Assembly: GCA_049510055.1 (NCBI GenBank)
Contig: JBEKZI010000017.1
Span: 1-32,226 of the forward strand
Origin: Phycisphaerae bacterium
Lineage (GTDB): Bacteria; Planctomycetota; Phycisphaerae; SM23-33
DNA: 32,226 nt
Direction of reading: 5' to 3'
The stretch's first letter is position 1. Each line of letters starts with the position of its first letter. The notes below the pieces were generated by a model. It searched no databases and was not told where the DNA came from. It worked only from the letters and a program-made list of their open reading frames with translations. Position numbers and translations under genes: made by a program. Positions 9,474 to 22,843 of this stretch are shown piece by piece.

Positions 9474-11615
9474 ATGCGGGATTTCACCCGATCTTTGAAG
9501 TACCTCTGGCCTTACCGGCTGCGGATAGGTCTGGCCCTGCTCTGCACGCTGGGTATCAGCGTGCTGTGGGCCGGCGGACTGGCTGCGATCCTGCCGGCGG
9601 CCAAGGTGCTGATGTCTTCCGAGGGCCTGCACGGCTGGGTGTACAGGCTGGCGGCCTCGGACCGCCTGGGCGTGGACCTGGTCTCGTACTTGCCCCCCGA
9701 GCGCACCCAACTCCAGGGCCAGCAGCTCTCTTGGGTGGTGGCGGTGGGGCAGCCCCATCGTTCGCACCGCAACGCCGGCGCCCTGCTGCCGGGCCAGTGG
9801 GTGGTGGGTCTGGAGGATGGCGACGTCGCTCACCGGTTTCTGCGGGCGGATGCACTGCTGCGGCTGCTGGCGATGCAGCAGCCGGATCGGCGGATCACGC
9901 TTCGCGTATGCCGGTCGGACAGCGACCAGATTACGCTGTTGCCTGTGGTGACAAGCACGTTGACCCTGTCGACCCAAGCGATGCTTTGGCTGACCCGGCG
10001 CTTTCCCGAGCCGCGGACCTTCGCGGACCGCTTCCCGATCCTGTTGACGCTGCTGGTCTTCGGGATCGTCATCAGCATCCTGCGCGACGCCCTGCGGATT
10101 CTTCAGGAATTCCTGTCCAGCTCGGCGGTGTGGTACGCGGTGAATGACATCCGCAACGACAACTACAACGTGGCCCTGCGTCTGCCGGTGGGCTATTACG
10201 CCAAGCACGGGACCGCCGACGCGATCAGCCGTTTCACCTATGACGTGGGTATGCTGGCCCGGGGGCTCATCACGTTGCTGAGCAAGACGCTGGTGGAGCC
10301 CGCCAAGGCGTTGGCGACGCTGGCCCTGGCGCTCATCCTGTCCTGGAAGCTGACCCTGATCGCCCTGATCGCCGGTCCGCCGGCATTCCTGGCCATTCGC
10401 CGGCTGGGGCGGGCGATGCGACGCGTTTCGCGCCAGGCGATGCTGAGCATGTCCCAAATGCTGGAGGTGCTGGAGGAGACGCTCGGCGGCATCCGAGTGG
10501 TCAAGGCCTACACCATGGAGAATCGCGAGCGCCGGCGGTTCCTGCGGGTCAACCACCAGTTGCTCCGCCAGAACCTCAAGGTGTTCTTTGTGGAAGCGTT
10601 GACGGCCCCGATCGTGGAGGCGCTGGGGATCACCGCGGCCATGGCCGCCGTAGCCGTGGCGGGATACTGGGTGCTCCACAATCAGCACGACTTGGACGCC
10701 GAGAAGTTCCTGGCGTTGATGGCGTGCCTGGTGGCGATGTTCGACCCGATTCGCAAGCTCTCGTCCGTTTCGACCGTCTTTCACGCCTCGGACGCCGCCG
10801 CGGCGCGGATCAGGGAACTGCACGATGCGCCGCAGGAAGTCACGTCGCCCGGGGCGCCCAGTCTGCCGCGCCACCGGCGCAGCATCGAGTTCCGCCACGT
10901 CAGTTTCCGCTACGACGGGACGAGCGATGACGCCCTTCGCGACGTCAACCTGACTATCCGGGCCGGCGAGAACGTAGCCATCGTCGGGCCCAACGGTTCG
11001 GGCAAGACCACGCTGGTGTCGATGCTCCCGCGATTGTTGGACCCCACGACCGGCCAGGTGCTCATTGATGGGACGGACATCGCGCGGTGCTCTTTGCGGT
11101 CGTTGCGGCGGCAGATCGGGCTGGTGACGCAGGACGCCGTACTTTTCCACGCCACGATCGAGGAGAACATCTCCTACGGTCTGCACCGTTCGCAGCCCGA
11201 CAAGACCCGCCGCGCGGCCGAGCGGGCCTACGTGGACGAATTCATCCGGAAACTGCCCGAAGGATACGGCACCCTTGTGGGCCCCCATGGAGCGACGCTC
11301 TCGGGCGGGGAGAAGCAGCGGATCAGTATCGCTCGTGCCATCCTGCGCGACCCGGCTATCCTCATCTTTGACGAGGCGATGAGCCAGATCGACTCCGATT
11401 CGGAGCACCGGATTCAGCAAGCGATGCAGGAGTTCTCACGTGGCCGGACGACGCTGATCGTCGCGCACCGCTTTGCGACGGTGCTGGCCGCCGGCCGCAT
11501 TGTGGTGATGCAGGCGGGGCGGATTCAGGACAGCGGCACGCACGACGAGTTGATGAGCCGCTGTGAACTCTATCGACACCTCTACGCCACTCAGTTCATC
11601 GCCACGGGCGGCTAG
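9474..11615 (+). CDS. ABC exporter (fused permease/ATPase, MsbA/McjD-like) with a large insertion between TM1 and TM2
   Basis: 713 aa with Walker A GPNGSGKTT, signature LSGGEKQR, Walker B ILIFDEA and an H-loop region VAHR. The N-terminal six-helix exporter domain has about 135 extra residues after the first helix. Confidence 0.9.
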   Translation: MRDFTRSLKYLWPYRLRIGLALLCTLGISVLWAGGLAAILPAAKVLMSSEGLHGWVYRLAASDRLGVDLVSYLPPERTQLQGQQLSWVVAVGQPHRSHRNAGALLPGQWVVGLEDGDVAHRFLRADALLRLLAMQQPDRRITLRVCRSDSDQITLLPVVTSTLTLSTQAMLWLTRRFPEPRTFADRFPILLTLLVFGIVISILRDALRILQEFLSSSAVWYAVNDIRNDNYNVALRLPVGYYAKHGTADAISRFTYDVGMLARGLITLLSKTLVEPAKALATLALALILSWKLTLIALIAGPPAFLAIRRLGRAMRRVSRQAMLSMSQMLEVLEETLGGIRVVKAYTMENRERRRFLRVNHQLLRQNLKVFFVEALTAPIVEALGITAAMAAVAVAGYWVLHNQHDLDAEKFLALMACLVAMFDPIRKLSSVSTVFHASDAAAARIRELHDAPQEVTSPGAPSLPRHRRSIEFRHVSFRYDGTSDDALRDVNLTIRAGENVAIVGPNGSGKTTLVSMLPRLLDPTTGQVLIDGTDIARCSLRSLRRQIGLVTQDAVLFHATIEENISYGLHRSQPDKTRRAAERAYVDEFIRKLPEGYGTLVGPHGATLSGGEKQRISIARAILRDPAILIFDEAMSQIDSDSEHRIQQAMQEFSRGRTTLIVAHRFATVLAAGRIVVMQAGRIQDSGTHDELMSRCELYRHLYATQFIATGG

Positions 11616-11715: not shown

Positions 11716-13179
11716 CTACCAGGGCACGCGCAGGGCCCGGAGGGGATGCCGCAGGACGAACCGGGCCAGCTTGCGGCGCATCGCCCGCCGGACGGCGAGA
11801 TCCCCTGACGGGGTATCGCGAAGGTAGGCCCACCGCATCTGCGGTTTGACGGTGTACTTCAGGAACCTCCGGTAGGCGCGGTTGAGCTCCTCATCCGACA
11901 TGGCCGTGAGGTTCACCGACGGGCCCGGCACTTCGAAGTAGGAAAGGCTTCCCCAGGTCAGAGTGCTCCGCTCTTGTGGACTGAGGTCCTGGTAGATCGG
12001 CGTGCCGGGCAGCGGGAAAAGCCGGCCGGCGGCGATGATCTCGGGTCTGGCCTGGCGCAGGAACTTGACGGTCTGGTTCAAATCCCATGCCGTTTCGCCG
12101 GGCAGACCTACCATGATGTCGGCGAAGATGCGCAGGCCCGCCTGGCGGGTCAGCAAGACGGCCCGGCGGTTGAGCTCGGCGGTGGCGTTCTTGCCCAGCC
12201 GGCGCAGCGCGTCGCTTGAACCGCTCTCAAAGCCGTACTCCACCTGGATGCACCCGGCCGATTTCATCTGATTCAGCAGCTCGCTGTCCGCTTGGTCCAC
12301 ACGCAGGCAGGCGTCCCATTGGAGCTGTTGGTGCAGGCCGGCGCGTCGGATCTGCTCGCAGAGCTCCAGCAGCCGCGAACGGTCGGCCCCCAGCGTGTCA
12401 TCCTCAAAGTGGATGGCCTCGACGCCGAACCGCCGGCGAGCAACCTGCATCTGCTCGATGACGTACGGAATGGAATGGAACCGCACGCCGACGCCGGAAA
12501 TCAAGTGCCCGGCGCAGAAGCGGCAGCGATTCGTGCAGCCGCGACTGGTGCGAATGTTGATCGCGGCGAGCTTGAGCCAGCGGATCAGGAATCGCCCTGG
12601 CGAGGTGTAGTAATCCATGCCGAATAGGTCGTAGGCGGGCGGTCCCAGGGTGTCCAGGTCCGTTACCGGCGGGCGGTCGGGCGTGCGGACGATGCCGCCG
12701 GCGGTGCGGAAGGCGATTCCCCGCACCGCTGGGCCGGGCCCGCCCTCGGCCAGCTCTCGCAGGGTGATTTCGCCCTCCCCGATGACGGCGACGTCGATCT
12801 GGGGACACTCCTGGAGCAGATGCTCGGGCAGGGCGGTGGGGTGCGGGCCGCCGGCCACTACCAGCGTCGCCGGGCCGCAGATCGTCTTGGCGTCCTGGGC
12901 CGCGAGTTGCCCTTCGGGCACACCCGGGGTTACCAGGGACAGTCCGACTATTTGCGGCTGGAACTCCTGCATCAATGTCTGCAGACTCGCCCGAGCGGCC
13001 GGCCAGTCAAAGCCGTTGCGCACCAACTGTTCCTCGGCGACGTACACCTTGACCTCATGGCCGCTGCGTCTCAGGACGGTCGCGATGCAGGCGATGCCAG
13101 TGGGCACCCATTGGGATCGAAAGATCCCTCGGGGCCAATCGGAGCGAGGAGGCGCGGGATAGACCAGCAGGATTTTCAT
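11716..13179 (-). CDS. B12-binding-domain radical SAM enzyme
   Basis: 487 aa from MKILLVYPAPP. The N-terminus looks like a cobalamin-binding Rossmann-like domain (IVGLSLVTPG ... VVAGGPHPT). The radical SAM cluster motif is RGCTNRCRFCAG (CxxxCxxC). Its start overlaps the upstream gene's stop in an ATGA junction (13176-13179). Confidence 0.9.
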   Translation of the reverse strand: MKILLVYPAPPRSDWPRGIFRSQWVPTGIACIATVLRRSGHEVKVYVAEEQLVRNGFDWPAARASLQTLMQEFQPQIVGLSLVTPGVPEGQLAAQDAKTICGPATLVVAGGPHPTALPEHLLQECPQIDVAVIGEGEITLRELAEGGPGPAVRGIAFRTAGGIVRTPDRPPVTDLDTLGPPAYDLFGMDYYTSPGRFLIRWLKLAAINIRTSRGCTNRCRFCAGHLISGVGVRFHSIPYVIEQMQVARRRFGVEAIHFEDDTLGADRSRLLELCEQIRRAGLHQQLQWDACLRVDQADSELLNQMKSAGCIQVEYGFESGSSDALRRLGKNATAELNRRAVLLTRQAGLRIFADIMVGLPGETAWDLNQTVKFLRQARPEIIAAGRLFPLPGTPIYQDLSPQERSTLTWGSLSYFEVPGPSVNLTAMSDEELNRAYRRFLKYTVKPQMRWAYLRDTPSGDLAVRRAMRRKLARFVLRHPLRALRVPW

Positions 13180-14090
13180 CTGGATTTCAACGTACTCCGG
13201 AACCATTGCCGGCGGAATGAGTCGCGCCGAGCGTGTCCGCGCAGGACGACGCCGCGGCTCAGTGCCAGGCGGCTTAACCAAGGGGGCCGGGACAGGCCCA
13301 GACGCCGCGCTAACTCGCGGCAGCGGCTCTCGCCCAGCAGCTTATAGGCCAGCCACAGGCCCATCGCAACCGCCTTGGCCGCCCCGGTGCGGGCCAGGGC
13401 GTCCTTCAGCCAGGCCTCGTCCAGTCCACCGGCCGCTTGACGAACCGCCAGCGTGAGGTCCACCAGCGGTTGCAGGCGATCGAAACTGTGGCTGGCGGCG
13501 CCGTGGACCGCCGCGATCAGGATCGTCCCGGCCGGGCTGGGATGGGGCAGAGGATCGGCTGGAGTCAGTTGCAGGTCCTCGAAGCTCACCGACACGCCGC
13601 GCCGCAAGGTGGGAGAGTTCACCAGGTTGGTGTGCACCTCCACGTGGCCGGCTGATCGCTGGGGCCGATGCCAGACCTCCTCCCCGTAACCCAGGGGGTG
13701 CTTCATGGCGACGACGACCGGCCGGTATCCCAGGTGCTCCATCCGGGGGCGTGTCGCGGCCAGCGCCGACTGCGGGATCAGCAGGTCCACGTCGGTGAAA
13801 GACCTCAGCGACGGGTGAGGATAGAGGCGATCGGCGAAATCGTAACCCTTCAGGACGATCACCGGCAAAGCAGCTTGGCGGAAGTCCTGGGTGATCTCGT
13901 GAGCCTGCTGCCGCAGCGCCAGGCACAGGCCTGTTCGTTGAAGGATCATGCCTGGGACGGATTCCCACAACGCCTGCGCCTTATCATCCCCGTTCCACAA
14001 CACCTGGCCGCGATCCGCCAGGCGGTGGATGTTGGACGCGACCGCCGGCAACACGCCGTGACGATCCGCCAGATCCAGCAGGAGTTTCAT
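13176..14090 (-). CDS. Nucleotidyltransferase-family protein (NTP_transf_5-like), of the type found as a tailoring gene in lasso peptide clusters
   Basis: 304 aa from MKLLLDLADRHGVLP (a TTG at 14105 is an alternative start). The region VIVLKGYDFADRLYPHPSLRSFTDVDLLIP resembles the uncharacterised nucleotidyltransferase family. The call rests partly on context (kinase, PqqD, B2). Confidence 0.65.
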   Translation of the reverse strand: MKLLLDLADRHGVLPAVASNIHRLADRGQVLWNGDDKAQALWESVPGMILQRTGLCLALRQQAHEITQDFRQAALPVIVLKGYDFADRLYPHPSLRSFTDVDLLIPQSALAATRPRMEHLGYRPVVVAMKHPLGYGEEVWHRPQRSAGHVEVHTNLVNSPTLRRGVSVSFEDLQLTPADPLPHPSPAGTILIAAVHGAASHSFDRLQPLVDLTLAVRQAAGGLDEAWLKDALARTGAAKAVAMGLWLAYKLLGESRCRELARRLGLSRPPWLSRLALSRGVVLRGHARRDSFRRQWFRSTLKSR

Positions 14091-14184
14091 CTGTTCCCCC
14101 CGCAAGGGAGCGACCGTGACCGGTATGTCGCGCCCGAGGGGATCGGCCAGTGCCGCCAGAATGGAATAGATCGGCTTCAGAGGT

Positions 14185-15168
14185 TCACCTCAGCAGCGAC
14201 GTGACCAGCGCCCCAAGCTCTTGGAGGCGAGGGCCAAGGCTCACCTCGTACGTGTCGCTCGTGCGAACCAGCTCAGCCATGGCCGCGAACGCCCGCCCGT
14301 CGCTGCCCTCGCGGTGCTTCTCGTACGCACGCACGTTCTCGTTGACCAATCGGACCAGAGCGCGGGTTTTGTCCAGGGGATGCACCTGATGCTGCCAGGG
14401 ATTGTGGGGATTGAGGAAAAGGATCAGCCCCGCCGAGGCGGCCACGCGGGTGGTCGGCGCCGCGGCCGGCCGCACATCCACCAGCACCTCATCGTTTCCG
14501 ATGTGGCCCCTGTGAGGCAGTCCTGCCAGCCACGGCAGCATCTGAATCGTTTGGCGGTGGACCTTGCAGGGGAAGCGAAGGCCCCAGAGCTGCGCATCGT
14601 GGTGCGGCGTGGCCGGGCTGAAGAACGTGATGTCGTCGGCCAGCAGGCTGAAGCCTTCGCCGGCCAGGCCCAGGGCCGTGGTGGTCTTTCCCCTCCCGCT
14701 GAGGCCGGAGATGAGCACGGCCCGTCGCTGCGGCGGACGATCCAGGAACAGGCTGGCGGCGTGGATGACGTAGTGCCCCTGGTCGTTGAGGATGTCGCAG
14801 AGCCACGGCAGGACGCACGCCTCCAGCAGGCACCTTTCGGCCCCGGGCCGGACGACGAACTCCGCCCGCCCCGCCGACAAGTCCACGTCGGCCGTGGCTT
14901 GGTCGATCACCTCGGTTTGGCGTCTTCGCGGATTGCAGCGGAAGATGATTCGACTTCCGTTAGGCAGCGAACCCCGCCAGAATTCCGGCAGGTCCGTCAG
15001 GGCAGGCAAGTGCTGCGCGTAGCGAATGCGGAGGCAAAACGCCCCGTCGCCCGGCTGGGCGGCATAGGCGCCAATGGCGGCCTGCACGGGGGCGAGCAGC
15101 GCCGGGTCGTCCGCCTCGACGGCGATGCGTTCGCCATGAACGTCGAAATGGGCTTGGACGGAACACAT
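14185..15168 (-). CDS. HPr-kinase-like P-loop kinase (HprK-related / lasso-peptide-kinase-like)
   Basis: 327 aa. The region HAASLFLDRPPQRRAVLISGLSGRGKTTTALGLAGEGFSLLADD has the HprK C-terminal-domain P-loop architecture. No obvious SD precedes the ATG at 15168. Confidence 0.7.
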   Translation of the reverse strand: MCSVQAHFDVHGERIAVEADDPALLAPVQAAIGAYAAQPGDGAFCLRIRYAQHLPALTDLPEFWRGSLPNGSRIIFRCNPRRRQTEVIDQATADVDLSAGRAEFVVRPGAERCLLEACVLPWLCDILNDQGHYVIHAASLFLDRPPQRRAVLISGLSGRGKTTTALGLAGEGFSLLADDITFFSPATPHHDAQLWGLRFPCKVHRQTIQMLPWLAGLPHRGHIGNDEVLVDVRPAAAPTTRVAASAGLILFLNPHNPWQHQVHPLDKTRALVRLVNENVRAYEKHREGSDGRAFAAMAELVRTSDTYEVSLGPRLQELGALVTSLLR

Positions 15169-15305
15169 AACGTGGATACTAAAAGCAAGGAGCAGAATAC
15201 ACTGCCCCTTGCTTTCGCCGCCATACGGATTTTTGTGTCAAATGGGTTTAGACCGGTACGCTCCCGTCCGCGGCCGAGCCGGTTGCGACGCCTGAAACGC
15301 CCCCC

Positions 15306-15374
15306 CGTTACATCCGAAAGCTGCTCACGCTTCTGAAACGTTGGCTGAGAAGAGGGCTTCTGGGGCGTTTCTAC
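15306..15374 (-). pseudogene. Decayed ninth copy of the family-2 precursor leader
   Basis: It reads (GTA)VETPQKPSSQPTFQKREQLSDVT, aligned against MKTKKPYSPPTLQKRDKLSDMT. The ATG is replaced by GTA, the motif Tyr is lost and the SD is weakened (GGGAAAGC). No stop follows until the frame runs into the kinase gene. Confidence 0.4.
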
Positions 15375-15416
15375 GCTTTCCCTAACCCGATACCGTGGCG
15401 AAGCCGCACTGTCTAT

Positions 15417-15518
15417 TTAAAAGGGCCCCCCTGAGCCGCGGACCGGGCTTTGAGTCGTATCCGAGAGCTTTTCGCGCTTCTGGAGCGTTGGCGGAGAATA
15501 GGGTTTCTTCGTTTTCAT
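15417..15518 (-). CDS. RiPP precursor peptide, family 2, copy H (33 aa): MKTKKPYSPPTLQKREKLSDTTQ|SPVRGSGGPF
   Basis: My own translation of the minus strand. GAAGGAGAT SD lies 5 nt before the ATG at 15518 and TAA at 15419-15417. It has the lasso-type leader YxxPxLx3Ex5Tx. It is below the ORF-track size cutoff. Confidence 0.75.
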   Translation of the reverse strand: MKTKKPYSPPTLQKREKLSDTTQSPVRGSGGPF

Positions 15519-15562
15519 GCGATCTCCTTCAACCGGCACTGTGGCGACGCCGCACTGCCCGC

Positions 15563-15667
15563 TTAACGCCTAGCGCCCGAGGTGATGGAGGGACCGCCTT
15601 GAGTCATATCTGAGAGCTTGTCCCGCTTTTGGAGCGTCGGCGGAGAATAGGGCTTCTTCGTTTTCAT
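15563..15667 (-). CDS. RiPP precursor peptide, family 2, copy G (34 aa): MKTKKPYSPPTLQKRDKLSDMTQ|GGPSITSGARR
   Basis: My own translation. ATG at 15667 with upstream GAAAGAGCT, and TAA at 15565-15563. The leader is identical to copies E and F. Confidence 0.75.
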   Translation of the reverse strand: MKTKKPYSPPTLQKRDKLSDMTQGGPSITSGARR

Positions 15668-15712
15668 GCGAGCTCTTTCAGCCGGCATCGTGGCGACGCC
15701 GCAGAAGCCTAC

Positions 15713-15826
15713 TTAACCCGTACCATCCCTAGCGCCTGAGGTGATGGGGGGACTACCTTGAGTCATATCTGAGAGCTTGTCCCGCTTCTGGAGCGTAGGC
15801 GGAGAATAGGGCTTCTTCGTTTTCAT
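15713..15826 (-). CDS. RiPP precursor peptide, family 2, copy F (37 aa): MKTKKPYSPPTLQKRDKLSDMTQ|GSPPITSGARDGTG
   Basis: My own translation. ATG at 15826 and TAA at 15715-15713. The repeat unit is conserved with E and G, and the differences concentrate in the core. Confidence 0.75.
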   Translation of the reverse strand: MKTKKPYSPPTLQKRDKLSDMTQGSPPITSGARDGTG

Positions 15827-15871
15827 GCGAGCTCTTTCAGCCGGCACCGTGGCGACGCCGCAGAAGCCTGC

Positions 15872-15985
15872 TTAAGCATTACCATCCCTAGCGCCTGAGG
15901 TGATGGGGGGGTCGCCTTGAGTCATATCTGAAAGCTTGTCCCGCTTCTGGAGCGTAGGTGGAGAATAGGGTTTCTTCGTTTTCAT
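15872..15985 (-). CDS. RiPP precursor peptide, family 2, copy E (37 aa): MKTKKPYSPPTLQKRDKLSDMTQ|GDPPITSGARDGNA
   Basis: My own translation. ATG at 15985 preceded by AAAGGAGAT, and TAA at 15874-15872. Confidence 0.75.
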   Translation of the reverse strand: MKTKKPYSPPTLQKRDKLSDMTQGDPPITSGARDGNA

Positions 15986-16030
15986 GCGATCTCCTTTAGC
16001 CAGCACCGTGGCGACGCCGCAGAAGCCTAC

Positions 16031-16141
16031 TTAATCATTAGCATCAACGCCCGAGGTGATGGAGGCCCCGCCTTGAGTCGTATCCGAGAGCTTTTCACGC
16101 TTCTGGAGCGTAGGCGGAGAATAGGGTTTCTTCGTTTGCAT
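16031..16141 (-). CDS. RiPP precursor peptide, family 2, copy D (36 aa): MQTKKPYSPPTLQKREKLSDTTQ|GGASITSGVDAND
   Basis: This is the internal ATG of track ORF 16031-16240, preceded by GAAGGAGAT. The longer track version would overlap copy C. Confidence 0.8.
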   Translation of the reverse strand: MQTKKPYSPPTLQKREKLSDTTQGGASITSGVDAND

Positions 16142-16181
16142 GCAATCTCCTTCAACCGGCACCGTGGCGACGCCGCGTTGG

Positions 16182-16292
16182 TCACGGGGGTGTAGGTGTA
16201 ACCCCGCTGACGCCGTCGGGCACAGCGGTGATGTCGGCAAGCCGCTCCAGCTTCTTCAACACGGGTTTGACATAGGGCTTCTTGGCGTTCAT
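16182..16292 (-). CDS. RiPP precursor peptide, family 1, copy C (36 aa): MNAKKPYVKPVLKKLERLADITA|VPDGVSGVTPTPP
   Basis: This is the internal ATG of track ORF 16182-16364. AAGGA SD lies in a 13-nt spacer after the stop of copy B. Confidence 0.8.
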   Translation of the reverse strand: MNAKKPYVKPVLKKLERLADITAVPDGVSGVTPTPP

Positions 16293-16305
16293 GCGTATTC
16301 CTTGG

Positions 16306-16416
16306 TCACTCGGGTGTAACCCCGCTGACGACGCCGGGCGTACCCTGAGCGGTGATGTCGGCAAGCCGCTCCAGCTTCTTCAACACGGGTTTGGCATAGG
16401 ACTTCTTGGTGTCCAT
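16306..16416 (-). CDS. RiPP precursor peptide, family 1, copy B (36 aa): MDTKKSYAKPVLKKLERLADITA|QGTPGVVSGVTPE
   Basis: This is the internal ATG of track ORF 16306-16488. AAAGGA SD lies in a 13-nt spacer after the stop of copy A. Confidence 0.8.
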   Translation of the reverse strand: MDTKKSYAKPVLKKLERLADITAQGTPGVVSGVTPE

Positions 16417-16429
16417 GCGTATTCCTTTT

Positions 16430-16540
16430 TCAACCGGGTGTAGCCCCACTGACGACGCCGGGCGTGCCCTGAGCGGTGATGTCGGCAAGCCGCTCCAGCT
16501 TCTTCAACACGGGTTTGGCATAAGGCTTCTTGGCGTTCAT
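16430..16540 (-). CDS. RiPP precursor peptide, family 1, copy A (36 aa): MNAKKPYAKPVLKKLERLADITA|QGTPGVVSGATPG
   Basis: This is the internal ATG of track ORF 16430-16663, preceded by GAAAGGAAT. It is the first gene of the tandem array, 106 nt downstream of the B2 gene. Confidence 0.8.
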   Translation of the reverse strand: MNAKKPYAKPVLKKLERLADITAQGTPGVVSGATPG

Positions 16541-16634: not shown

Positions 16635-16663
16635 AACTTAACACAGTTATGGGGCTTGTGCAA
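16635..16663 (-). promoter_or_regulatory. Weak candidate internal promoter for the precursor array
   Basis: Minus strand reads TTGCAC (16663-16658), a 17-nt spacer, then TAAGTT (16640-16635). It straddles the B2 stop codon and matches sigma70 consensus only partially. Confidence 0.2.
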
Positions 16664-17096
16664 GGTCCTCTTTGACGGAATTTTCTTGCGCCGCGGCCCC
16701 GTGGACCAGCACCACCGCCGCCGGGCCGTCCGGGGGCGACGTTAAGGCTATATCATTGAGCGTCACCCAGCCGTGGGCTTGGGTTCGCGGGGCCTCCGGG
16801 TTTTGCGGATACACGCCGATTCGCAAAACGGCCGGGTAGCCTGCCAGGCGCAGGAAGTGAAACAGGGTTAGGGACTGTCGCAGGCAGGGGCGACGGCGCA
16901 TGTTGCGAGGGTTTTTCAGACGTTGCGCTACCCGCTCCACGATATCCTGCCAGGCAATGCCCCGGTAGGGGACCACGGAAGTCGGGGGCGTCAGCACGCG
17001 TAACACTCGCTTGAGCGACAAGACCTTGTCCAGCAGGGGAATGAACGTCGCCACCAGCCAGATGTGCGCCCGTAACAACGGCAATCGCAGCGACAT
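16647..17096 (-). CDS. Lasso-peptide B2-type leader peptidase (transglutaminase-core cysteine protease family)
   Basis: 149 aa from the ATG at 17096 (a TTG at 17117 is an alternative start). The region RRRPCLRQSLTLFHFLRLAGYPAVLRIGV ... AHGWVTLND matches the Cys...His...Asp layout of the McjB C-terminal / B2 family. It lies directly downstream of the PqqD gene. Confidence 0.8.
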   Translation of the reverse strand: MSLRLPLLRAHIWLVATFIPLLDKVLSLKRVLRVLTPPTSVVPYRGIAWQDIVERVAQRLKNPRNMRRRPCLRQSLTLFHFLRLAGYPAVLRIGVYPQNPEAPRTQAHGWVTLNDIALTSPPDGPAAVVLVHGAAAQENSVKEDLAQAP

Positions 17097-17103
17097 GGGG
17101 CCG

Positions 17104-17397
17104 CTAGTGTTGCTCAACCAGCAATTTCTCCTGAAGAAGCTTGCCCGCCAAGGCGGTCATGTCCCGGGTAAGCTCCTCTCGCGAGACTTCGTACTGTTCC
17201 CAAAGGGTTTCAATGGCCTCCCCGAGCGTCCGCCGGCCGTCCAGTGCCTGCAGGAAGGCGGCAGTGGTCTCATTGCACGTGTACAGGTACCCGGAGTTGA
17301 GCGAGAACACGACCGTGTCCGATCCGGGGCCCAACGACTGGTAGGTCACGTCGTCGGCCAGCTTCAATCGCAGGTTCAGTAGCGGTATGGCAGTCAT
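17104..17397 (-). CDS. PqqD-family RiPP recognition element protein (lasso B1-like)
   Basis: 97 aa from MTAIPLLNLRLKLADDV, with AGGTGAG upstream. The region VVFSLNSGYLYTCNETTAAFLQALDGRRTLGEAIETLWEQYEVSREELTRDMTALAGKLLQEKLL is a typical PqqD/RRE winged-helix pattern. Confidence 0.85.
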   Translation of the reverse strand: MTAIPLLNLRLKLADDVTYQSLGPGSDTVVFSLNSGYLYTCNETTAAFLQALDGRRTLGEAIETLWEQYEVSREELTRDMTALAGKLLQEKLLVEQH

Positions 17398-17475
17398 AGA
17401 AAGCTCACCTGAAGGTTTTCGTACCGCCGAATTCGACGGCCGCATTGTATAGTCACCGCCGACTTTCCACAACCT

Positions 17476-17678: not shown

Positions 17679-20165
17679 ATGAGACCACGGTTGATAGTGA
17701 TGGCAGTGGCCGCGACCTTGGCTGCAGTGGCATGCCTGGCGCAGGCCGAAAAAGCCTCCGTCCTTCTGGACAAGGGCATCTACACCGAAGAAACGCTTGG
17801 GAACCCCTCCGCGGCCATCGGCATCTACAGCCAGGTGGTCGCCAGCGGCGAGGCCGACCGCCAGTATGCCGCCCAGGCCCAGTATCGCATCGCGATGTGC
17901 CACCTGAAGCTCAAGCACGACAACGAGGCCCGCGAGGCGCTGAAGACATTCCTGAGCAAGTACAGCGATCAGGAAGAGCTGGCGTCCAAGGCCCGGACCG
18001 CGCTGGAGGACCTGCTGGAGTTCGACCCGGCGGCGCTCATGCCTCCCACCATCGTGGCCTACGTCGAGGTGGGCAGCCCCGGCAAACAGCTCGAGACGGT
18101 CCTGAAGATGCTGAAGGGCACGCCTTTGGCCAATCCGCTGGAGATGATGAATCCAACATCCGCGCCGTCGGATGCCTCCGCGCCGTCGGCGACCTCCGCG
18201 CCGGCGACTTCCTACGGCCGCCCCGCCAGTCCCGCCCAGGTCTTCTCGGCGTTGCTGAATCCCAGCATGCTGAAAGAGTTCAAGAAGCTTCGCAGCATGG
18301 CCGTGGGCGTCTCCGAGATCAAAGGCCGCGGCCAGAGCCCCTTCGTGGCCGTCTTGAGGCCCGGCGACAGCGACGCGCTCCGCGGGATCCTCACGGCCGG
18401 CGTGCTTGCCTCCGGCCAGCCCACCGCCCCGATCGAAGGCATGCAGACGGTGCAACTCAGCCCGGAGATGGCCTGCGCGTTCGACGACAGCGTGTTCCTC
18501 TTTGCCTCCCCGGTGTCTCAACTTGCCTGGAGCGTCCATCAGTATAAGTCCGGCGCGCCCGAACCCAGCCTGCTGACCGCCAACGAGTCGTTTTCGCGGC
18601 TGGCCCCTGCCGCCGATCGCAAAAATGACGCGCTGACGGTCTGGGCGAACCCTTCTCGGCTGCTCCAAAACAAAGCGTACATCCCGCCGGAAGCCCTGGA
18701 GAAAATGATGATCGCAAACGCCTTCGCCGACTTCGAAAACATGGAGGGCGCCGTCGTCCGGTTGCGCCTCAAGGAGACCAGCCTCAGCCTGGAGGCCACC
18801 GTCGCCTACCGCGAGGGGCGCAAAGCGTTTGGGTATGACCTGATCCGCACGTGTCCACTGGACCAGGCCGGTTTTGCCGCCGTTCCTCCGCAGGCGGTGG
18901 GCATCGTGGCCCTGGCCCTGTTGGAGCACACCGCCTCAACAGAACCTCCCGTCGCCGACGTTCGGCAGGAGACCGTCCGCCGTATCACCGGGCTGGACCT
19001 GGGGAGAGAGCTGTTCAGTAATATCGAGCAACTCTCGCTGTTCTTGATGCCGTCCAGCGAGGCGGCGACGGCCCATCCGTTGAGCCGTCTGTCTGTGGTG
19101 GCCCCGTCGCTGGGCCTGGCCATTACGTCGCGCAACCCCGCGCAGACCCTGGCCGTGCTGGACAGGATGTTGACGGTCCAAGGCCTGATGTCGGCAGGTT
19201 CCACCAGCGCCCCGGCGGCGGACGAGCAAGGCATGCGGACGTACGTAATCGGCGCCAGCAACCAGAAGCCGATATCCCTGTGCGTGGCGCAGAAAGGCAA
19301 GACCACGGTGCTGGCGTTCCTTCCGGAAGTGGTCCAGACGTCTCTGACGGCCCTGGGCACGGGCAAGAACGTCACGACCGACGGGCCGATGGCACAGGCC
19401 CTCGGCCAGGTCAGCGACAAGAACAAGGTGGTGCTGGTCAACGCCGGCGGACTGTTCCGCTTGTATGACGCCAGCGTCGCGCCGCCCGCGGCAAAACGCG
19501 ACGCGGCGTCGCAGCCGGCGACGGACAGCCAGGCCGTGGCCGATCAGATCGCCTCGGCCCTGGACGACACGGTAATCCGGCTGGAGACCTCCGAACTGCC
19601 GAACACCATGACGGTCCGCGCCGAGCTATTGGGCATTCCGCCGCTGGCGAAGCTGTTTCCTCTGGTCATGCAGTATCAGCAGCAGCGCATGGCCTTCCAG
19701 AAGGCCAGGAAATCGCAAGCACAACCTTCCCAAGAGCGCAACAAGCTCATGAAGCAGGTCGGAACAGATTTCCTCAAGGCCCTCCAGGCAAATGACGAGG
19801 CGGCGATTGGGAAATTGATCGTCCCGCACTCCTCCGTGGAGGCCAAGATCAAGGACCTACTTGCAGTCCCGGGTCTGGCGGCGTTTCGGTTCCAGGATAG
19901 CGGCAGGGCGCTAAATCTCGGTTGGGTCCTGGTGTACGGGCCCGACAAGACGGATTCCTCGGCGCCCGCGATACTGATCCATCTGCTCAAGCAGGCCAAG
20001 TCCCCGCCGCCGTGGCTCGTCTCGGACGTGGAAATCCTTCCGATCCCGGATGCCATACACCAATTGAAGCAGTACGATTCCAGGGCCACCGGCGGCCCGA
20101 TGCCGGCGCCTGCGCCGGCGCCCGCGCCTGCGGGTGATGATGCGGCGCCCGCCGAGAACAACTGA
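17679..20165 (+). CDS. Secreted 828-aa protein of unknown function with a TPR-like N-terminal segment
   Basis: Signal peptide MRPRLIVMAVAATLAAVACLAQA. A YbgF/TPR-like segment follows (YAAQAQYRIAMCHLKLKHDNEAREALKTFLSKY). It has Ser/Ala/Pro linkers and a C-terminal PAPAPAPAPA tail. Codon usage is high in GC3. Confidence 0.8.
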   Translation: MRPRLIVMAVAATLAAVACLAQAEKASVLLDKGIYTEETLGNPSAAIGIYSQVVASGEADRQYAAQAQYRIAMCHLKLKHDNEAREALKTFLSKYSDQEELASKARTALEDLLEFDPAALMPPTIVAYVEVGSPGKQLETVLKMLKGTPLANPLEMMNPTSAPSDASAPSATSAPATSYGRPASPAQVFSALLNPSMLKEFKKLRSMAVGVSEIKGRGQSPFVAVLRPGDSDALRGILTAGVLASGQPTAPIEGMQTVQLSPEMACAFDDSVFLFASPVSQLAWSVHQYKSGAPEPSLLTANESFSRLAPAADRKNDALTVWANPSRLLQNKAYIPPEALEKMMIANAFADFENMEGAVVRLRLKETSLSLEATVAYREGRKAFGYDLIRTCPLDQAGFAAVPPQAVGIVALALLEHTASTEPPVADVRQETVRRITGLDLGRELFSNIEQLSLFLMPSSEAATAHPLSRLSVVAPSLGLAITSRNPAQTLAVLDRMLTVQGLMSAGSTSAPAADEQGMRTYVIGASNQKPISLCVAQKGKTTVLAFLPEVVQTSLTALGTGKNVTTDGPMAQALGQVSDKNKVVLVNAGGLFRLYDASVAPPAAKRDAASQPATDSQAVADQIASALDDTVIRLETSELPNTMTVRAELLGIPPLAKLFPLVMQYQQQRMAFQKARKSQAQPSQERNKLMKQVGTDFLKALQANDEAAIGKLIVPHSSVEAKIKDLLAVPGLAAFRFQDSGRALNLGWVLVYGPDKTDSSAPAILIHLLKQAKSPPPWLVSDVEILPIPDAIHQLKQYDSRATGGPMPAPAPAPAPAGDDAAPAENN

Positions 20166-20175
20166 TGATGAACCG

Positions 20176-22155
20176 ATGAACGCGGTTTCCATTGGCAGGG
20201 GTGAAGGCACAGGCCGCAGCCACGTGTTGCGGCCTGTGCTGGTCGTTTTGCTGGCGACGGTCCTGGTGCCGTCGGCCTGCACGTTGTGGTTCATGTATGC
20301 CGCCGTGCAGGAAGTGTCGCTGGCTTCCCGCCAGCGCCTGGCGGATGCCTACGACGGCGCGGTCCGAGGGGCCGCGGCCAGGCTTCAGGACTATTGCTCA
20401 GCCCGGATCGCCTCGCTGTCGGCCGGCGGCGATCCGTCGCCGACGAAGGCCTTCGACCGGCTGGTCTTGGCCCGCGCCGCCGATGCCGTGATCGTCCGCG
20501 ACGGCGCCGGCCGTCTGCTCTACCCCTCCCCCCAGGTTCCCTCCGGGCAGGCCAGAGCGATGTCGCAAGCGTGGCAGTCGGCGGAAGACTTGGAGCACGC
20601 GCAGGCGGACGGCCTGGCTGCCGCAGCCGCCTATGCCCGGATCGCCGACACCGCCCCCAATGCCGACCTGCGGGCTCAGGCGATGCTGGCCCAGGCGCGA
20701 TGCCTGGCCAAGGCGGGGCAGAAGGATCAGGCTGTCGCCATCCTGCGGGCCCTGGCCGAGAATCCCGACTTGCAAGCCGCCAGGGGCGCCCAAGGGCGGC
20801 TGGTGACGCCCAATGCCGTCCTGTTCGCCCTGCAACTGATCAACCGGCCGGAGGATGAGCAGTTCCGCAAGCTGGCGGCGGGCCTGGTGAAACGGCTCAA
20901 CGATTACGAGGAACCGGCGATGCCGCCCAGCCAGCGGCGGTTCCTCATGGCCGCGCTGTGGGAGATGGACAACTCCCTTCCGCCTTTCGCAACGCTTGCG
21001 GCCGAGAACCTGGCGGCTGAGTATCTCAGTCGCCCGCAGCCGGCGCCACAGCCGTCGCAACTAACGCCGACGTCCCTGCCCGGCGTTTGGCAGGCGGCCG
21101 GGCCCGGCGGCACCGTGACGGGTCTGTTCCGGCAGGACCTTCTGCTGGCGAACATGCACTTGGCCATCCAGGCGGACGCCCCCCGGGGAGTGAGCCTGTT
21201 CATAAGGCCGCCGACCGGCGAACCGACGACGCGGCAGCGGGCCTTCGTGACTTTGCCGGCCGGGGCCGCCTTGCCCGGCTGGACGGTGGAGGTCCTGCTG
21301 ACCGGCGACGATCCCTTCGCCGTGGCGGCCCGGCAGCGCAAGGCCGCCATTCTGTGGACGGCCGCCGTCGGCATCATGATGATCCTGGCGCTGGCGGCGG
21401 TGTTGAGCTACTACCTCAGCCGCCAGGTGCGGCTGACGCGGCTGAAAAACGATCTGATCGCCACCGTGTCGCACGAGCTGAAGACCCCCCTGGCCTCCAT
21501 GCGCCTGCTGATCGACACGCTTCTGGAACGGCGCTATGGCGCCCAGGAGCAGGCCGAGGAATATTTAGCGATGATCGCCAAGGAAAATGAGCGCCTCAGC
21601 CGGCTCATCGATAACTTTTTGAATTTCTCGCGGATGGAGCGCCGCAAGACGGCGTTCGTGTTCGCGGCGCTGCCGGCCGATGAGCTGGTCGCCGCGGTCA
21701 TGCGGGCGGCGCCGGATCGGGTGACCCAGCCGCCGTGCCGTTTTGAATTGGACGTGGCGAAAGACTGCCCCGCCGTCCGCGGCGACCGCGACGCGCTGGT
21801 GACCGTCGTGCTGAACCTGCTGGACAATGCCTACAAATACTCCCACGACCCCCGGCGCATTGCGCTTCGCGTCTTCGGACAGGAAGGCCGCCTGCACCTG
21901 GAGGTCCGCGACAATGGCATCGGCCTGTCGCGCCGTTCAGTCCGTCGGGTGTTCCGACGCTTCTACCAGGTGGACCGCAGCCTTTCGCGCTCGGTGGGTG
22001 GTTGCGGTCTGGGGCTGAGCATTGTTAAATTTATCGTCGATGCCCACGGCGGCACCGTGGACGTCTCCAGCCGGCTCGGCCAAGGGAGCACGTTCACCGT
22101 CACGCTGCCGGGCCTGGAAGACGGCGCGGGACACGCAGGCCATGATGAAAGCTGA
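20176..22155 (+). CDS. Sensor histidine kinase
   Basis: It has an H-box (LIATVSHELKTPLASM), an N-box (VVLNLLDNAYKYS), and G-boxes (VRDNGIGL, GGCGLGLSIVKFIV). Two TM helices flank a periplasmic TPR-like domain of about 330 aa. The start was chosen at MNAVSIG, 11 nt after the upstream stop. Confidence 0.9.
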   Translation: MNAVSIGRGEGTGRSHVLRPVLVVLLATVLVPSACTLWFMYAAVQEVSLASRQRLADAYDGAVRGAAARLQDYCSARIASLSAGGDPSPTKAFDRLVLARAADAVIVRDGAGRLLYPSPQVPSGQARAMSQAWQSAEDLEHAQADGLAAAAAYARIADTAPNADLRAQAMLAQARCLAKAGQKDQAVAILRALAENPDLQAARGAQGRLVTPNAVLFALQLINRPEDEQFRKLAAGLVKRLNDYEEPAMPPSQRRFLMAALWEMDNSLPPFATLAAENLAAEYLSRPQPAPQPSQLTPTSLPGVWQAAGPGGTVTGLFRQDLLLANMHLAIQADAPRGVSLFIRPPTGEPTTRQRAFVTLPAGAALPGWTVEVLLTGDDPFAVAARQRKAAILWTAAVGIMMILALAAVLSYYLSRQVRLTRLKNDLIATVSHELKTPLASMRLLIDTLLERRYGAQEQAEEYLAMIAKENERLSRLIDNFLNFSRMERRKTAFVFAALPADELVAAVMRAAPDRVTQPPCRFELDVAKDCPAVRGDRDALVTVVLNLLDNAYKYSHDPRRIALRVFGQEGRLHLEVRDNGIGLSRRSVRRVFRRFYQVDRSLSRSVGGCGLGLSIVKFIVDAHGGTVDVSSRLGQGSTFTVTLPGLEDGAGHAGHDES

Positions 22156-22843
22156 TCCGACTACCGACGAAACAATCCTCATCGTCGAGGACGAGCCCGC
22201 CATGCTGCGGGGCCTGAAGGACAATTTTCAGTTCGAGGGCTACCGCGTCCTGACGGCCGCCGACGGCGAGAAAGGGCTGGAGCTCGCCTGCGACGCCAAA
22301 CCGGACCTGATCCTCCTGGACATCATGCTGCCCAAGGTGAACGGCTATGAGATATGCCGGCTCCTGCGAAGCGAGGGGCTGGACATGCCGATCATCATGC
22401 TGACGGCCAAGGGGCAGGAGAGCGACATCATCCTGGGGCTGAACCTCGGCGCCGACGATTACGTCACCAAGCCTTTCAGCATCAAGGAGCTGCTGGCCCG
22501 CGTGCGGACGATGCTCCGTCGCCGCCGCCAGAAACAGCAACCGGTGATGCGAGCCGGCGACCTGGAACTGGACCTCGCCAGCCACCGGTTGCGGCGGGGG
22601 GGCAAGGAAGTGCCGCTCACGGCCAAGGAATTCGCCTTGCTTGAGCTGTTCTTCCGCCGGGCGGGCAAGGCCCTGACGCGGGATGAGATCCTGCGGACGG
22701 TGTGGGGCTACAACGTGTTCGTCACCTCCCGCAGCGTGGACCGATTCATCAACACGTTGCGGGCCAAGATCGAGGACGACCCCGCCAAACCCATCTGGAT
22801 CAAGACCGTCCGCCAGATAGGCTATCGCTTCGAACTTCCGTGA
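22142..22843 (+). CDS. OmpR/PhoB-family response regulator
   Basis: MMKADPTTDETILIVEDEPAMLRGL ... DLILLDIMLPKVNG ... PIIMLTAKG is the receiver domain. The C-terminus is a winged helix (LTAKEFALLELF ... IKTVRQIGYRFE). It overlaps the kinase stop by 14 nt. Confidence 0.95.
   Translation: MMKADPTTDETILIVEDEPAMLRGLKDNFQFEGYRVLTAADGEKGLELACDAKPDLILLDIMLPKVNGYEICRLLRSEGLDMPIIMLTAKGQESDIILGLNLGADDYVTKPFSIKELLARVRTMLRRRRQKQQPVMRAGDLELDLASHRLRRGGKEVPLTAKEFALLELFFRRAGKALTRDEILRTVWGYNVFVTSRSVDRFINTLRAKIEDDPAKPIWIKTVRQIGYRFELP

Follow-up and report, generated by a model that had tools for sequence, protein, structure and literature searches.

What is made by a locus that joins lasso-type precursor leaders, and the proteins that recognise and cleave them, to a kinase, a nucleotidyltransferase-fold protein and a cobalamin-dependent radical S-adenosylmethionine (SAM) enzyme, and in which no lasso cyclase was found? 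The question is raised by contig JBEKZI010000017.1 of the Phycisphaerae bacterium assembly GCA_049510055.1 (Planctomycetota), whose positions 1 to 32,226 are called the window here, and within it by eight tandem short precursor genes of two families on the minus strand at 15417-16540, which were verified by an open reading frame (ORF) check. An earlier note on this DNA had pointed to a Ser-Gly dipeptide shared by all eight predicted core peptides, close to where lasso cores carry the Asp or Glu that accepts the ring, and had named its Ser as the obvious candidate substrate of the kinase and nucleotidyltransferase pair. We give slightly better than even credence to the view that the locus belongs to a widespread family of lasso-derived peptides made by the ribosome and modified after translation (RiPPs), with linear products, in which a conserved core hydroxyl residue, hereafter the anchor, would be phosphorylated and then decorated, probably with C-methylation as well. 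Judged from this context, in which no ring-forming enzyme was found, the conserved Ser most probably serves as the site of phosphorylation rather than of ring closure. The eight genes and their predicted peptides, with core positions counted from the boundary after Thr(-2)-x(-1), are as follows.

A1: 16430-16540, minus strand, family 2; leader MNAKKPYAKPVLKKLERLADITA, core QGTPGVVSGATPG; anchor Ser8, codon AGT at 16448-16450
A2: 16306-16416, minus strand, family 2; leader end ITA, core QGTPGVVSGVTPE; anchor Ser8, codon AGC at 16324-16326
A3: 16182-16292, minus strand, family 2; leader end ITA, core VPDGVSGVTPTPP; anchor Ser6, codon AGC at 16206-16208
A4: 16031-16141, minus strand, family 1; leader MQTKKPYSPPTLQKREKLSDTTQ, core GGASITSGVDAND; anchor Ser7, codon TCG at 16052-16054
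A5: 15872-15985, minus strand, family 1; leader end MTQ, core GDPPITSGARDGNA; anchor Ser7, codon TCA at 15896-15898
A6: 15713-15826, minus strand, family 1; leader end MTQ, core GSPPITSGARDGTG; anchor Ser7, codon TCA at 15737-15739
A7: 15563-15667, minus strand, family 1; leader end MTQ, core GGPSITSGARR; anchor Ser7, codon TCG at 15578-15580
A8: 15417-15518, minus strand, family 1 leader (end TTQ) with the divergent core SPVRGSGGPF; anchor Ser6, codon TCA at 15432-15434

The ATG of all eight genes is preceded, at about 7 nt, by a ribosome-binding site of AGGAG/AGGAA type, and A1 also exists as a 36-aa gene call in public assemblies, while no precursor matched an NCBIfam model. The leaders follow the pattern M[ND][AT]KK[PS]Y[AV]KPVLKKLERLADITA in family 2 (A1-A3) and M[KQ]TKKPYSPPTLQKR[DE]KLSD[MT]TQ in family 1 (A4-A8), and each of the eight is of the lasso type, with KKPYxxPxL and Thr at -2. 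The boundary between leader and core is independently backed by more than 130 homologous precursors, in which the Tyr of YxxP and Thr(-2) are always equally far apart (Y1...T16-x17, then the core). With this boundary the anchor Ser falls, in agreement with the earlier note, at core position 8 in A1 and A2, 6 in A3 and A8 and 7 in A4-A7, and none of the eight cores has Asp or Glu at positions 7-9. The pentamers listed there (VVSGA, VVSGV, GVSGV, ITSGV, ITSGA three times and RGSGG) were all exact on re-reading the eight ORFs. Its statement that the two families have hardly anything else in common is true of the cores and does not extend to the leaders, which share KKPYxxPxLxKxxxLxDxT.

Does the conservation of Ser-Gly mean anything among genes that are so alike? 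Paralogues are 85-86% identical at the DNA level, and alignments of the repeat units showed that leader and intergenic DNA are near identical within a family and that substitutions and indels cluster in the core, inside whose variable stretch Ser-Gly is retained. The Ser is encoded by TCA or TCG in family 1 and by AGC or AGT in family 2, followed by GGC or GGG for Gly. Because Ser-Gly survives in a variable core and with synonymous codon variation, selection on the amino acid rather than mere recent copying is indicated.

The decisive evidence for a meaningful conservation lies in the cores of relatives, of which 124 unique ones from outside the window's own lineage were compared; the precursors were gathered by a leader regular expression, which misses very divergent ones, and the cores are counted as independent though many are related. 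The leaders of these relatives read Y1-x-x-P4-x-[LIV]6...[LI]12...T16-[E/Q/A]17 with invariant spacing. Ser or Thr occurs at core positions 5-10 in 124 out of 124 cores and at position 7 in 82, the anchor being Ser in 61 and Thr in 63, preceded by Val or Ile in 99 (80%) and followed by Gly in 56 (45%), Asp in 15 and Thr in 13. The pair [VI][ST] at core positions 6-7, for which composition predicts a chance of about 0.04 per core, is present in most of 75 cores (binomial tail about 1e-50, with relatedness among cores ignored). The Ser-Gly that the earlier note had called invariant is therefore a property of the window only, and across the family the pattern is [V/I]-[S/T]-x; what the whole family keeps is a hydroxyl residue behind a beta-branched one, with constant spacing from the leader. 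The nearest relative, L002 (84% identity in the radical SAM enzyme and, over the aligned part, 71% in the kinase), has a Thr as its anchor (V-A-T-G, V-P-T-G). Behind the anchor follows a dispensable tail of 0 to 24 residues; 14 of the 124 cores end with the anchor itself, and in 12 more it is the penultimate residue. This softens the contrast with the C-terminal Ser phosphorylated by characterised lasso kinases, which had been drawn from the correct observation that no window core ends in Ser (0/8). Moreover, the anchor is the sole Ser, Thr or Tyr in 52 cores (42%). Core position 1 is Gly in 92 cores and, in roughly one core in four, Gln, Ser, Ala, Phe or Val.

If leader and position suggest a lasso peptide, is the locus then a lasso cluster? 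It has the leader motif with Thr(-2) and the B1 and B2 proteins of such clusters, but neither the cyclase nor an Asp/Glu acceptor with a threading tail. An Asn-synthetase-type cyclase was absent from the long ORFs of the window (Pfam), from the public gene calls of the same contig and from a screen for the SGGxDS PP-loop, and none was found in the ±6-10 kb around dozens of homologous cassettes (PP-loop screen, 48 loci). Three PP-loop matches were rejected as cyclases, being NadE or a glutamine-dependent AsnB with GATase domains, in loci without the full B1-B2-kinase cassette. Among the related cores, 65 of 124 have no Asp or Glu anywhere and 27 have nine residues or fewer, while Asp or Glu at positions 7-9 with a threading tail is seen in 23, mostly as V-T-D. 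As cyclase and acceptor residue are both missing, the locus is not a lasso cluster, and the framing of the window Ser against lasso ring acceptors survives as a positional analogy only.

What stands beside the precursors instead? The HprK-like kinase, the NTP_transf_5 protein and the B12-radical SAM enzyme proposed by the earlier note were all found there, by domain matches, conserved motifs and fold, next to B1, B2 and an exporter.

17104-17472, minus strand: B1, a discrete PqqD-type RiPP recognition element (RRE) (Pfam PqqD, 1.6e-12; public gene call of 97 aa, about 17104-17397)
16647-17117, minus strand: B2, a transglutaminase-like Cys protease, predicted lasso-type leader peptidase (Pfam Transglut_core3, 1.1e-10)
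14185-15168, minus strand: HprK-like P-loop kinase of 327 aa, presumed Ser/Thr kinase for the core anchor
13176-14105, minus strand: NTP_transf_5 nucleotidyltransferase-fold protein, from the same family as PsmN and LppN (above cut-off for Pfam PF14907, 3.8e-33)
11716-13206, minus strand: class B (cobalamin-binding) radical SAM enzyme of 496 aa (Pfam B12-binding, 6.8e-18; Radical_SAM, 1e-17)
9474-11615, plus strand: MsbA-like ABC exporter, transcribed convergently to the biosynthetic operon (Pfam ABC_membrane and ABC_tran; MsbA-type NCBIfam matches)

B1 scored under the cut-offs of the NCBIfam lasso PqqD chaperone models, and B2 reached 46 bits against lasso_biosyn_B2 (cut-off 33), with Cys78 and His115 kept in 27 homologues. 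The kinase is placed in the HprK/PEPCK fold by the combination of sub-threshold hidden Markov model (HMM) matches, P-loop, Asp-Asp motif and predicted fold: G158-x-G-K-T-T163 and D178-D179 are invariant in 24 homologues, and its AF2 model (pLDDT 90.8) finds phosphoenolpyruvate (PEP) carboxykinases as the best folds in the PDB. The PEP carboxykinase fold superfamily includes the catalytic domain of HPr kinase. The Asp-Asp pair 178-179 corresponds to the metal-binding pair mutated in PsmK (PMC6993621). A sequence search against solved structures gave nothing significant for either the kinase or the NTP_transf_5 protein, and a word-indexed search for kinase homologues returned 52 proteins, one of them remote (27% identity), and no sequence link to the characterised lasso kinases. 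In the NTP_transf_5 protein D105-x-D107 is kept in 35 homologues. Its frame overlaps that of the radical SAM gene by 31 nt (13176-13206, minus strand), and a 4-nt overlap occurs in Verrucomicrobiota loci, which suggests translational coupling of the two enzymes. The CxxxCxxC motif of the radical SAM enzyme (C224/C228/C231) is invariant. This enzyme belongs to no named NCBIfam equivalog, its best models being those of HpnJ, BchE, ApyD and PhpK type, all far under cut-off, and among solved structures it matched only generic class B or other radical SAM enzymes.

The remote kinase homologue is of particular use, as it comes from a cassette (L056 571-5449; L057 181-4835) that also encodes a PqqD protein, B2 and NTP_transf_5, and that has no B12-radical SAM gene on the recovered contigs of 4.9-10 kb. 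Its precursors, ITA TDSHVSGVTGDA and VTA QAPVSKIPTD..., carry V-S-G and V-S-K at core positions 5-6. Because V-S is kept here with no radical SAM gene on the contigs, the anchor seems to be tied to the kinase, the NTP-transferase and the B proteins rather than to the radical SAM enzyme. The anchor is furthermore the sole hydroxyl in 42% of the cores, is C-terminal in a subset of them like the classical substrates, and is kept in this remote cassette, and for these reasons we assign it to the kinase, for which it appears to be the only credible peptide acceptor. As a separate observation, the remote cassette encodes a 524-aa unannotated protein with no Pfam match and a SAGYDS motif that recalls a PP-loop.

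How does this locus relate to phosphorylating systems that are already known? A full-text literature search, with subscription-only papers outside its reach, found no paper on this gene combination and returned only those on linear polyphosphorylated peptides (LPP) and on pseudomycoidin. The LPP family (Popov et al., Nat Commun 2026, PMC13381572) consists of cyclase-less Bacillota clusters in which an HprK-like kinase is encoded together with a discrete RRE, an NTP transferase, a SipW-like signal peptidase and an MsbA-type pump. In it, LppK polyphosphorylates the internal core Ser3 before leader removal, S3A abolishes this modification, and leader cleavage is inefficient without phosphorylation (PMC13381572). 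Like LPP, the window locus has a discrete RRE reading a YxxP leader, an HprK-like kinase (assigned here by sub-threshold HMMs, motifs and fold), an NTP_transf_5-type transferase and an MsbA-like exporter, and no macrolactam cyclase in either case; both also have a conserved internal core Ser near the cleavage site, whose phosphorylation was shown in LPP and is predicted here. The differences are nevertheless substantial. The family-defining marker of LPP is its leader peptidase, a SipW-like archaeal-type signal peptidase I, whereas the window locus has a lasso B2 cysteine protease and no signal peptidase domain was found in the window. LPP precursors measure 35-200 aa, with a characterised core of 45 aa, and bear the motif YxxPxVLxHQxIxFETxxS with Ser at core position 3, while the window precursors, with cores of 10-14 residues, share only YxxPx[LV] and a Thr at Y+15 and have their anchor at core position 6-8 (Y+22 to Y+24), as Ser or Thr family-wide. 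LPP has been reported from Bacillota only, often inside capsule loci, in contrast to the Planctomycetota, Verrucomicrobiota and Desulfobacterota of the window's family, and has no radical SAM enzyme, whereas a B12-radical SAM enzyme is present here. Given that the signal-peptidase marker and the precursor motif are lacking, that no radical SAM enzyme is described in LPP and that the phyla differ, the locus lies outside the LPP family as defined.

Clusters of the paeninodin and pseudomycoidin type (PadeK, PsmK, PsmN) share with the locus B1, B2, a HprK-like kinase with P-loop and Asp-Asp pair, NTP_transf_5, an ABC exporter and a leader with aromatic-xx-Pro, and the C-terminal anchor of 14 of the 124 related cores is placed as in paeninodin and pseudomycoidin. 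Pseudomycoidin receives one to three phosphates from PsmK on its C-terminal Ser, which agrees with the action of PadeK on paeninodin; PsmK also accepts the full-length precursor, and PsmN, itself an NTP_transf_5 protein, is required for the addition of hexose(s) to the phosphorylated peptide (PMC6993621). These clusters, however, have a cyclase and an Asp/Glu acceptor, and their kinase phosphorylates the C-terminal Ser of a threaded peptide, while the window locus has no cyclase that could be found, no acceptor, an internal Ser and an extra B12-radical SAM enzyme. The latter resembles the B12 radical SAM C-methyltransferases of RiPP pathways in its cobalamin-binding domain, its CxxxCxxC core and its position beside precursor genes. 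It is no member of these families by score (131.4 bits against the ApyD model NF050148, cut-off 750; 71.6 bits against the RiPP maturation C-methyltransferase model TIGR03975, cut-off 281.85) and has no fused RRE. ApyD methylates C-beta, further B12-dependent radical SAM C-methyltransferases are PoyB/C and those of bottromycin, and class B enzymes catalyse varied chemistry. Val, Ile and Pro are the residues methylated in polytheonamides and bottromycin, and cores of the window type are rich in them. Taken together, the locus would represent a B2-dependent, B12-radical-SAM-containing, Ser/Thr-anchored and cyclase-less branch of lasso-derived RiPPs, whose enzymatic logic appears common to lasso peptides and LPP: the lasso module for leader recognition and cleavage is recombined with three enzymes, namely a kinase, one of nucleotidyltransferase fold and a cobalamin radical SAM enzyme. 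This would extend the phosphorylated linear lasso relatives published in 2026 beyond Bacillota, with B2 in place of SpI as a second solution for the leader peptidase and with an added B12-radical SAM enzyme.

From the observed gene content, intact catalytic motifs, synteny and pattern of core conservation, we infer a pathway whose chemical steps and their order are as follows. The discrete RRE B1 would bind the lasso-type leader (YxxPxL...Thr at -2) of the eight precursors and the HprK-like kinase would phosphorylate the anchor hydroxyl, which is the Ser of [V/T/G]-S-G here and [V/I]-[S/T] family-wide, usually at position 7. The NTP_transf_5 protein might then decorate the anchor phosphate, in analogy to its homologue PsmN. 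The B12-radical SAM enzyme would act on an unactivated carbon, most likely by C-methylation of the beta-branched residue beside the anchor or of the preceding Pro/Val stretch, before B2 cleaves after Thr(-2)-x(-1) to free a Gly/Val/Pro-rich peptide of 10-14 residues and the MsbA-like pump exports this short linear peptide. The Val or Ile before the anchor, which the earlier note had proposed as a radical SAM site, is plausible as such, and C-methylation is our default guess for the reaction on account of the near-constant Val/Ile at this place and the Pro/Val-rich stretch. In this way the proposal offers a precise and cheap experimental target, a single hydroxyl in a core of 7-14 residues that tolerates both Ser and Thr.

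Several points weigh against this pathway. The kinase on which it turns scores below the gathering score of Pfam Hpr_kinase_C (3.8e-4) and below the cut-off of TIGR04352 HprK_rel_A (8.8e-10), with a TM-score of only about 0.5 to its nearest solved structures, the PEP carboxykinases. LppK does not accept S3T, although half of the window's family uses Thr, and LppN was inactive in a heterologous host, which makes the role of NTP_transf_5 uncertain even in the model system (both PMC13381572). The radical SAM reaction is the least certain step, being unpredictable from sequence, and the best named relatives of this enzyme include ring-contracting, cyclising and P-methylating enzymes. Finally, the cyclase search reached over the window and ±6-10 kb around each cassette, so that a distant cyclase is formally possible.

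Could the conserved hydroxyl serve something other than a kinase? It might be the site at which the B12-radical SAM enzyme acts, or an element that this enzyme recognises, for instance in methylating or oxidising the peptide or in forming a C-O or C-C cross-link; the kinase and the NTP-transferase would then work on a small molecule, for example to make an activated sugar or nucleotide. We consider this explanation unlikely. It would account for three loci (L010 227-2083, L023 3875-5692, L035 9804-11149) in which precursors lie directly upstream of a radical SAM paralogue, with no match to kinase, NTP-transferase, B1 or B2 nearby, and whose cores retain I-S-G or V-T-D, and it agrees with the chemical variety of class B enzymes and with the small-molecule kinases among the fold neighbours of our kinase. 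Yet L023 and L035 are from the same metagenome-assembled genomes (MAGs) as the complete cassettes L018 and L041, so a kinase is available in trans; the remote cassette retains V-S on short contigs without a radical SAM gene; the anchor is C-terminal in 14 cores as in classical kinase substrates; and every characterised HprK-like kinase of lasso-type clusters targets a peptide (PMC13381572, PMC6993621). An ordinary lasso cluster with its cyclase gene elsewhere in the genome, for which B1, B2, the YxxP leader and Thr(-2) are the hallmarks, is in our judgement very improbable, given the absence of Asp or Glu at positions 7-9 from all eight window cores, the 65 related cores without any acidic residue and the 27 too short to thread, and the fact that no cyclase adjoins dozens of cassettes, where PP-loop matches turned out to be NadE or genuine AsnB. 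Practically no weight is left for the shared Ser-Gly as a functionless product of recent tandem duplication: high identity between paralogues and almost identical leaders are what duplication predicts, but divergence is concentrated in the cores and spares Ser-Gly, the Ser comes from two unlinked codon families, and Ser or Thr stands at the same place in all 124 cores across several phyla, which already contradicts this explanation.

A different question is whether a phosphorylated or nucleotidylated anchor might be an activated intermediate instead of the final state, either losing its phosphate to give dehydroalanine or dehydrobutyrine (Dha/Dhb) or being attacked by the residue-1 amine to close a head-to-side-chain ring of 6-8 residues with no lasso cyclase. 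Gly1 in 92 and position 7 for the anchor in 82 of the 124 cores place it in the register of lasso ring acceptors, a tail of 0-24 residues leaves the N-terminal heptapeptide as the conserved unit, and the kinase, NTP-transferase and radical SAM genes are tightly linked with overlapping frames, all of which such a route would explain. We still find it quite doubtful, because the cassette has no lyase or cyclase domain, Gly1 and the spacing are equally explained by a B2 cleavage preference and a leader-anchored kinase ruler, position 1 holds another residue (Gln, Ser, Ala, Phe or Val) in roughly one core in four, and the known homologous kinases yield stable (poly)phosphate esters (PMC13381572, PMC6993621). 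For the window Ser, elimination or cyclisation, which the earlier note had also raised, is pure hypothesis. The most specific form of the idea has a heptapeptide Gly1-x-x-Pro-x-[Val/Ile]-[Ser/Thr]7 whose residue 7, phosphorylated and possibly nucleotidylated, is attacked by the residue-1 amine freed by B2, so that a lasso-sized ring forms via phosphorus or the beta-carbon, the kinase and NTP-transferase replace the cyclase and the radical SAM enzyme tailors or locks the ring; this we hold to be more doubtful still.

Returning to the linear, phosphorylated RiPP that we favour, how widespread would it be? Homologues of the radical SAM enzyme fall into 414 clusters at 90% identity (E<=1e-20), the top 120 being 53-100% identical, and belong, where named, to Phycisphaerae, other Planctomycetota, Brocadiia and Verrucomicrobiota. 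The order B1-B2-precursors-kinase-NTP-transferase-radical SAM is kept in about 35 of 48 genome loci, including those of Syntrophobacteraceae, Desulfuromonadales and one MAG labelled Pedobacter, and a metagenome scan gave 80 loci, with all four partner genes of the radical SAM gene present in 24 of the 32 that had at least 4.5 kb upstream of it. Hosts of the cassette are thus Planctomycetota, Verrucomicrobiota and Desulfobacterota, and with hundreds of 90%-identity clusters for the radical SAM enzyme alone the family is large in these and other groups. The cassette is self-contained, since its flanking genes are unrelated housekeeping genes that differ fully between lineages. In the window these comprise an IF-2B family gene, CsrA, ribosomal proteins L13/S9, argC, argJ and bipA on one side, while an adjoining exporter is confined to the closest relatives, L001 and L002.

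One to eight precursor genes lie between B2 and kinase, and the maximum of eight, among about 94 loci, occurs in the window and its metagenomic twin, which makes the window's array a convenient natural substrate panel. The number of precursor genes varies between samples (L049, L050 and also L051): the metagenomic copy L049 (6667-7790) has eight and L050 (6826-7790) seven, with one family-1 unit fewer. In the ITSGARDG peptides of the metagenomic copies, core position 2 is Asp, Ser or Gly and I-T-S-G-A-R-D-G is constant.

A candidate regulatory element was seen in the minimum free energy and centroid folds of 15150-15430; it follows the last precursor gene and lies just upstream of the ATG of the kinase.

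15181-15212, minus strand: terminator-like hairpin with an 11-bp G+C-rich stem (GCAAGGGGCAG...CUGCUCCUUGC) followed by UUUU

Leaky termination at this strong hairpin might set the ratio of precursor to enzyme, and the hairpin was not listed by a consensus terminator scan. Inter-precursor spacer RNA folded no better than shuffled sequence, and sigma-70 and terminator scans across the operon stayed at background level. On the other side of the cluster, divergent from B1, lie genes for a tetratricopeptide repeat (TPR) protein, a histidine kinase and an OmpR-type response regulator (17679-22843, plus strand). This trio was rejected as part of the system, as no TPR homologue was found in the 48 genome loci and the Verrucomicrobiota and Brocadiia contexts, the only ones searched for the histidine kinase and response regulator, lack all three; it may be a local regulator or a mere neighbour.

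Some relatives carry precursors of unusual architecture or context. Upstream of the precursors beside the radical SAM paralogue of L035 are genes for two thymidylate-kinase-like proteins and a CHAD domain protein; CHAD domains are linked to polyphosphate. Within the precursor array of the Verrucomicrobiota loci L052 and L053 (6921-7388), a leader and core (ETTE GSGPAITPVLI) are fused to a Peptidase_S74 domain, an intramolecular-chaperone self-cleaving domain that begins at SDRNAKKN, and such a fusion might act as a precursor whose C-terminal follower removes itself. Some Brocadiia precursors (L014/L054 13392-13729, L009 7549-7960) have the same leader, a V-[S/T]-[G/D] anchor and a long tail ending in K-G-G-C-F, adjoined in L054 by a radical SAM/SPASM gene (12240-13265), and these tails suggest a second, Cys-directed modification on the same type of peptide.

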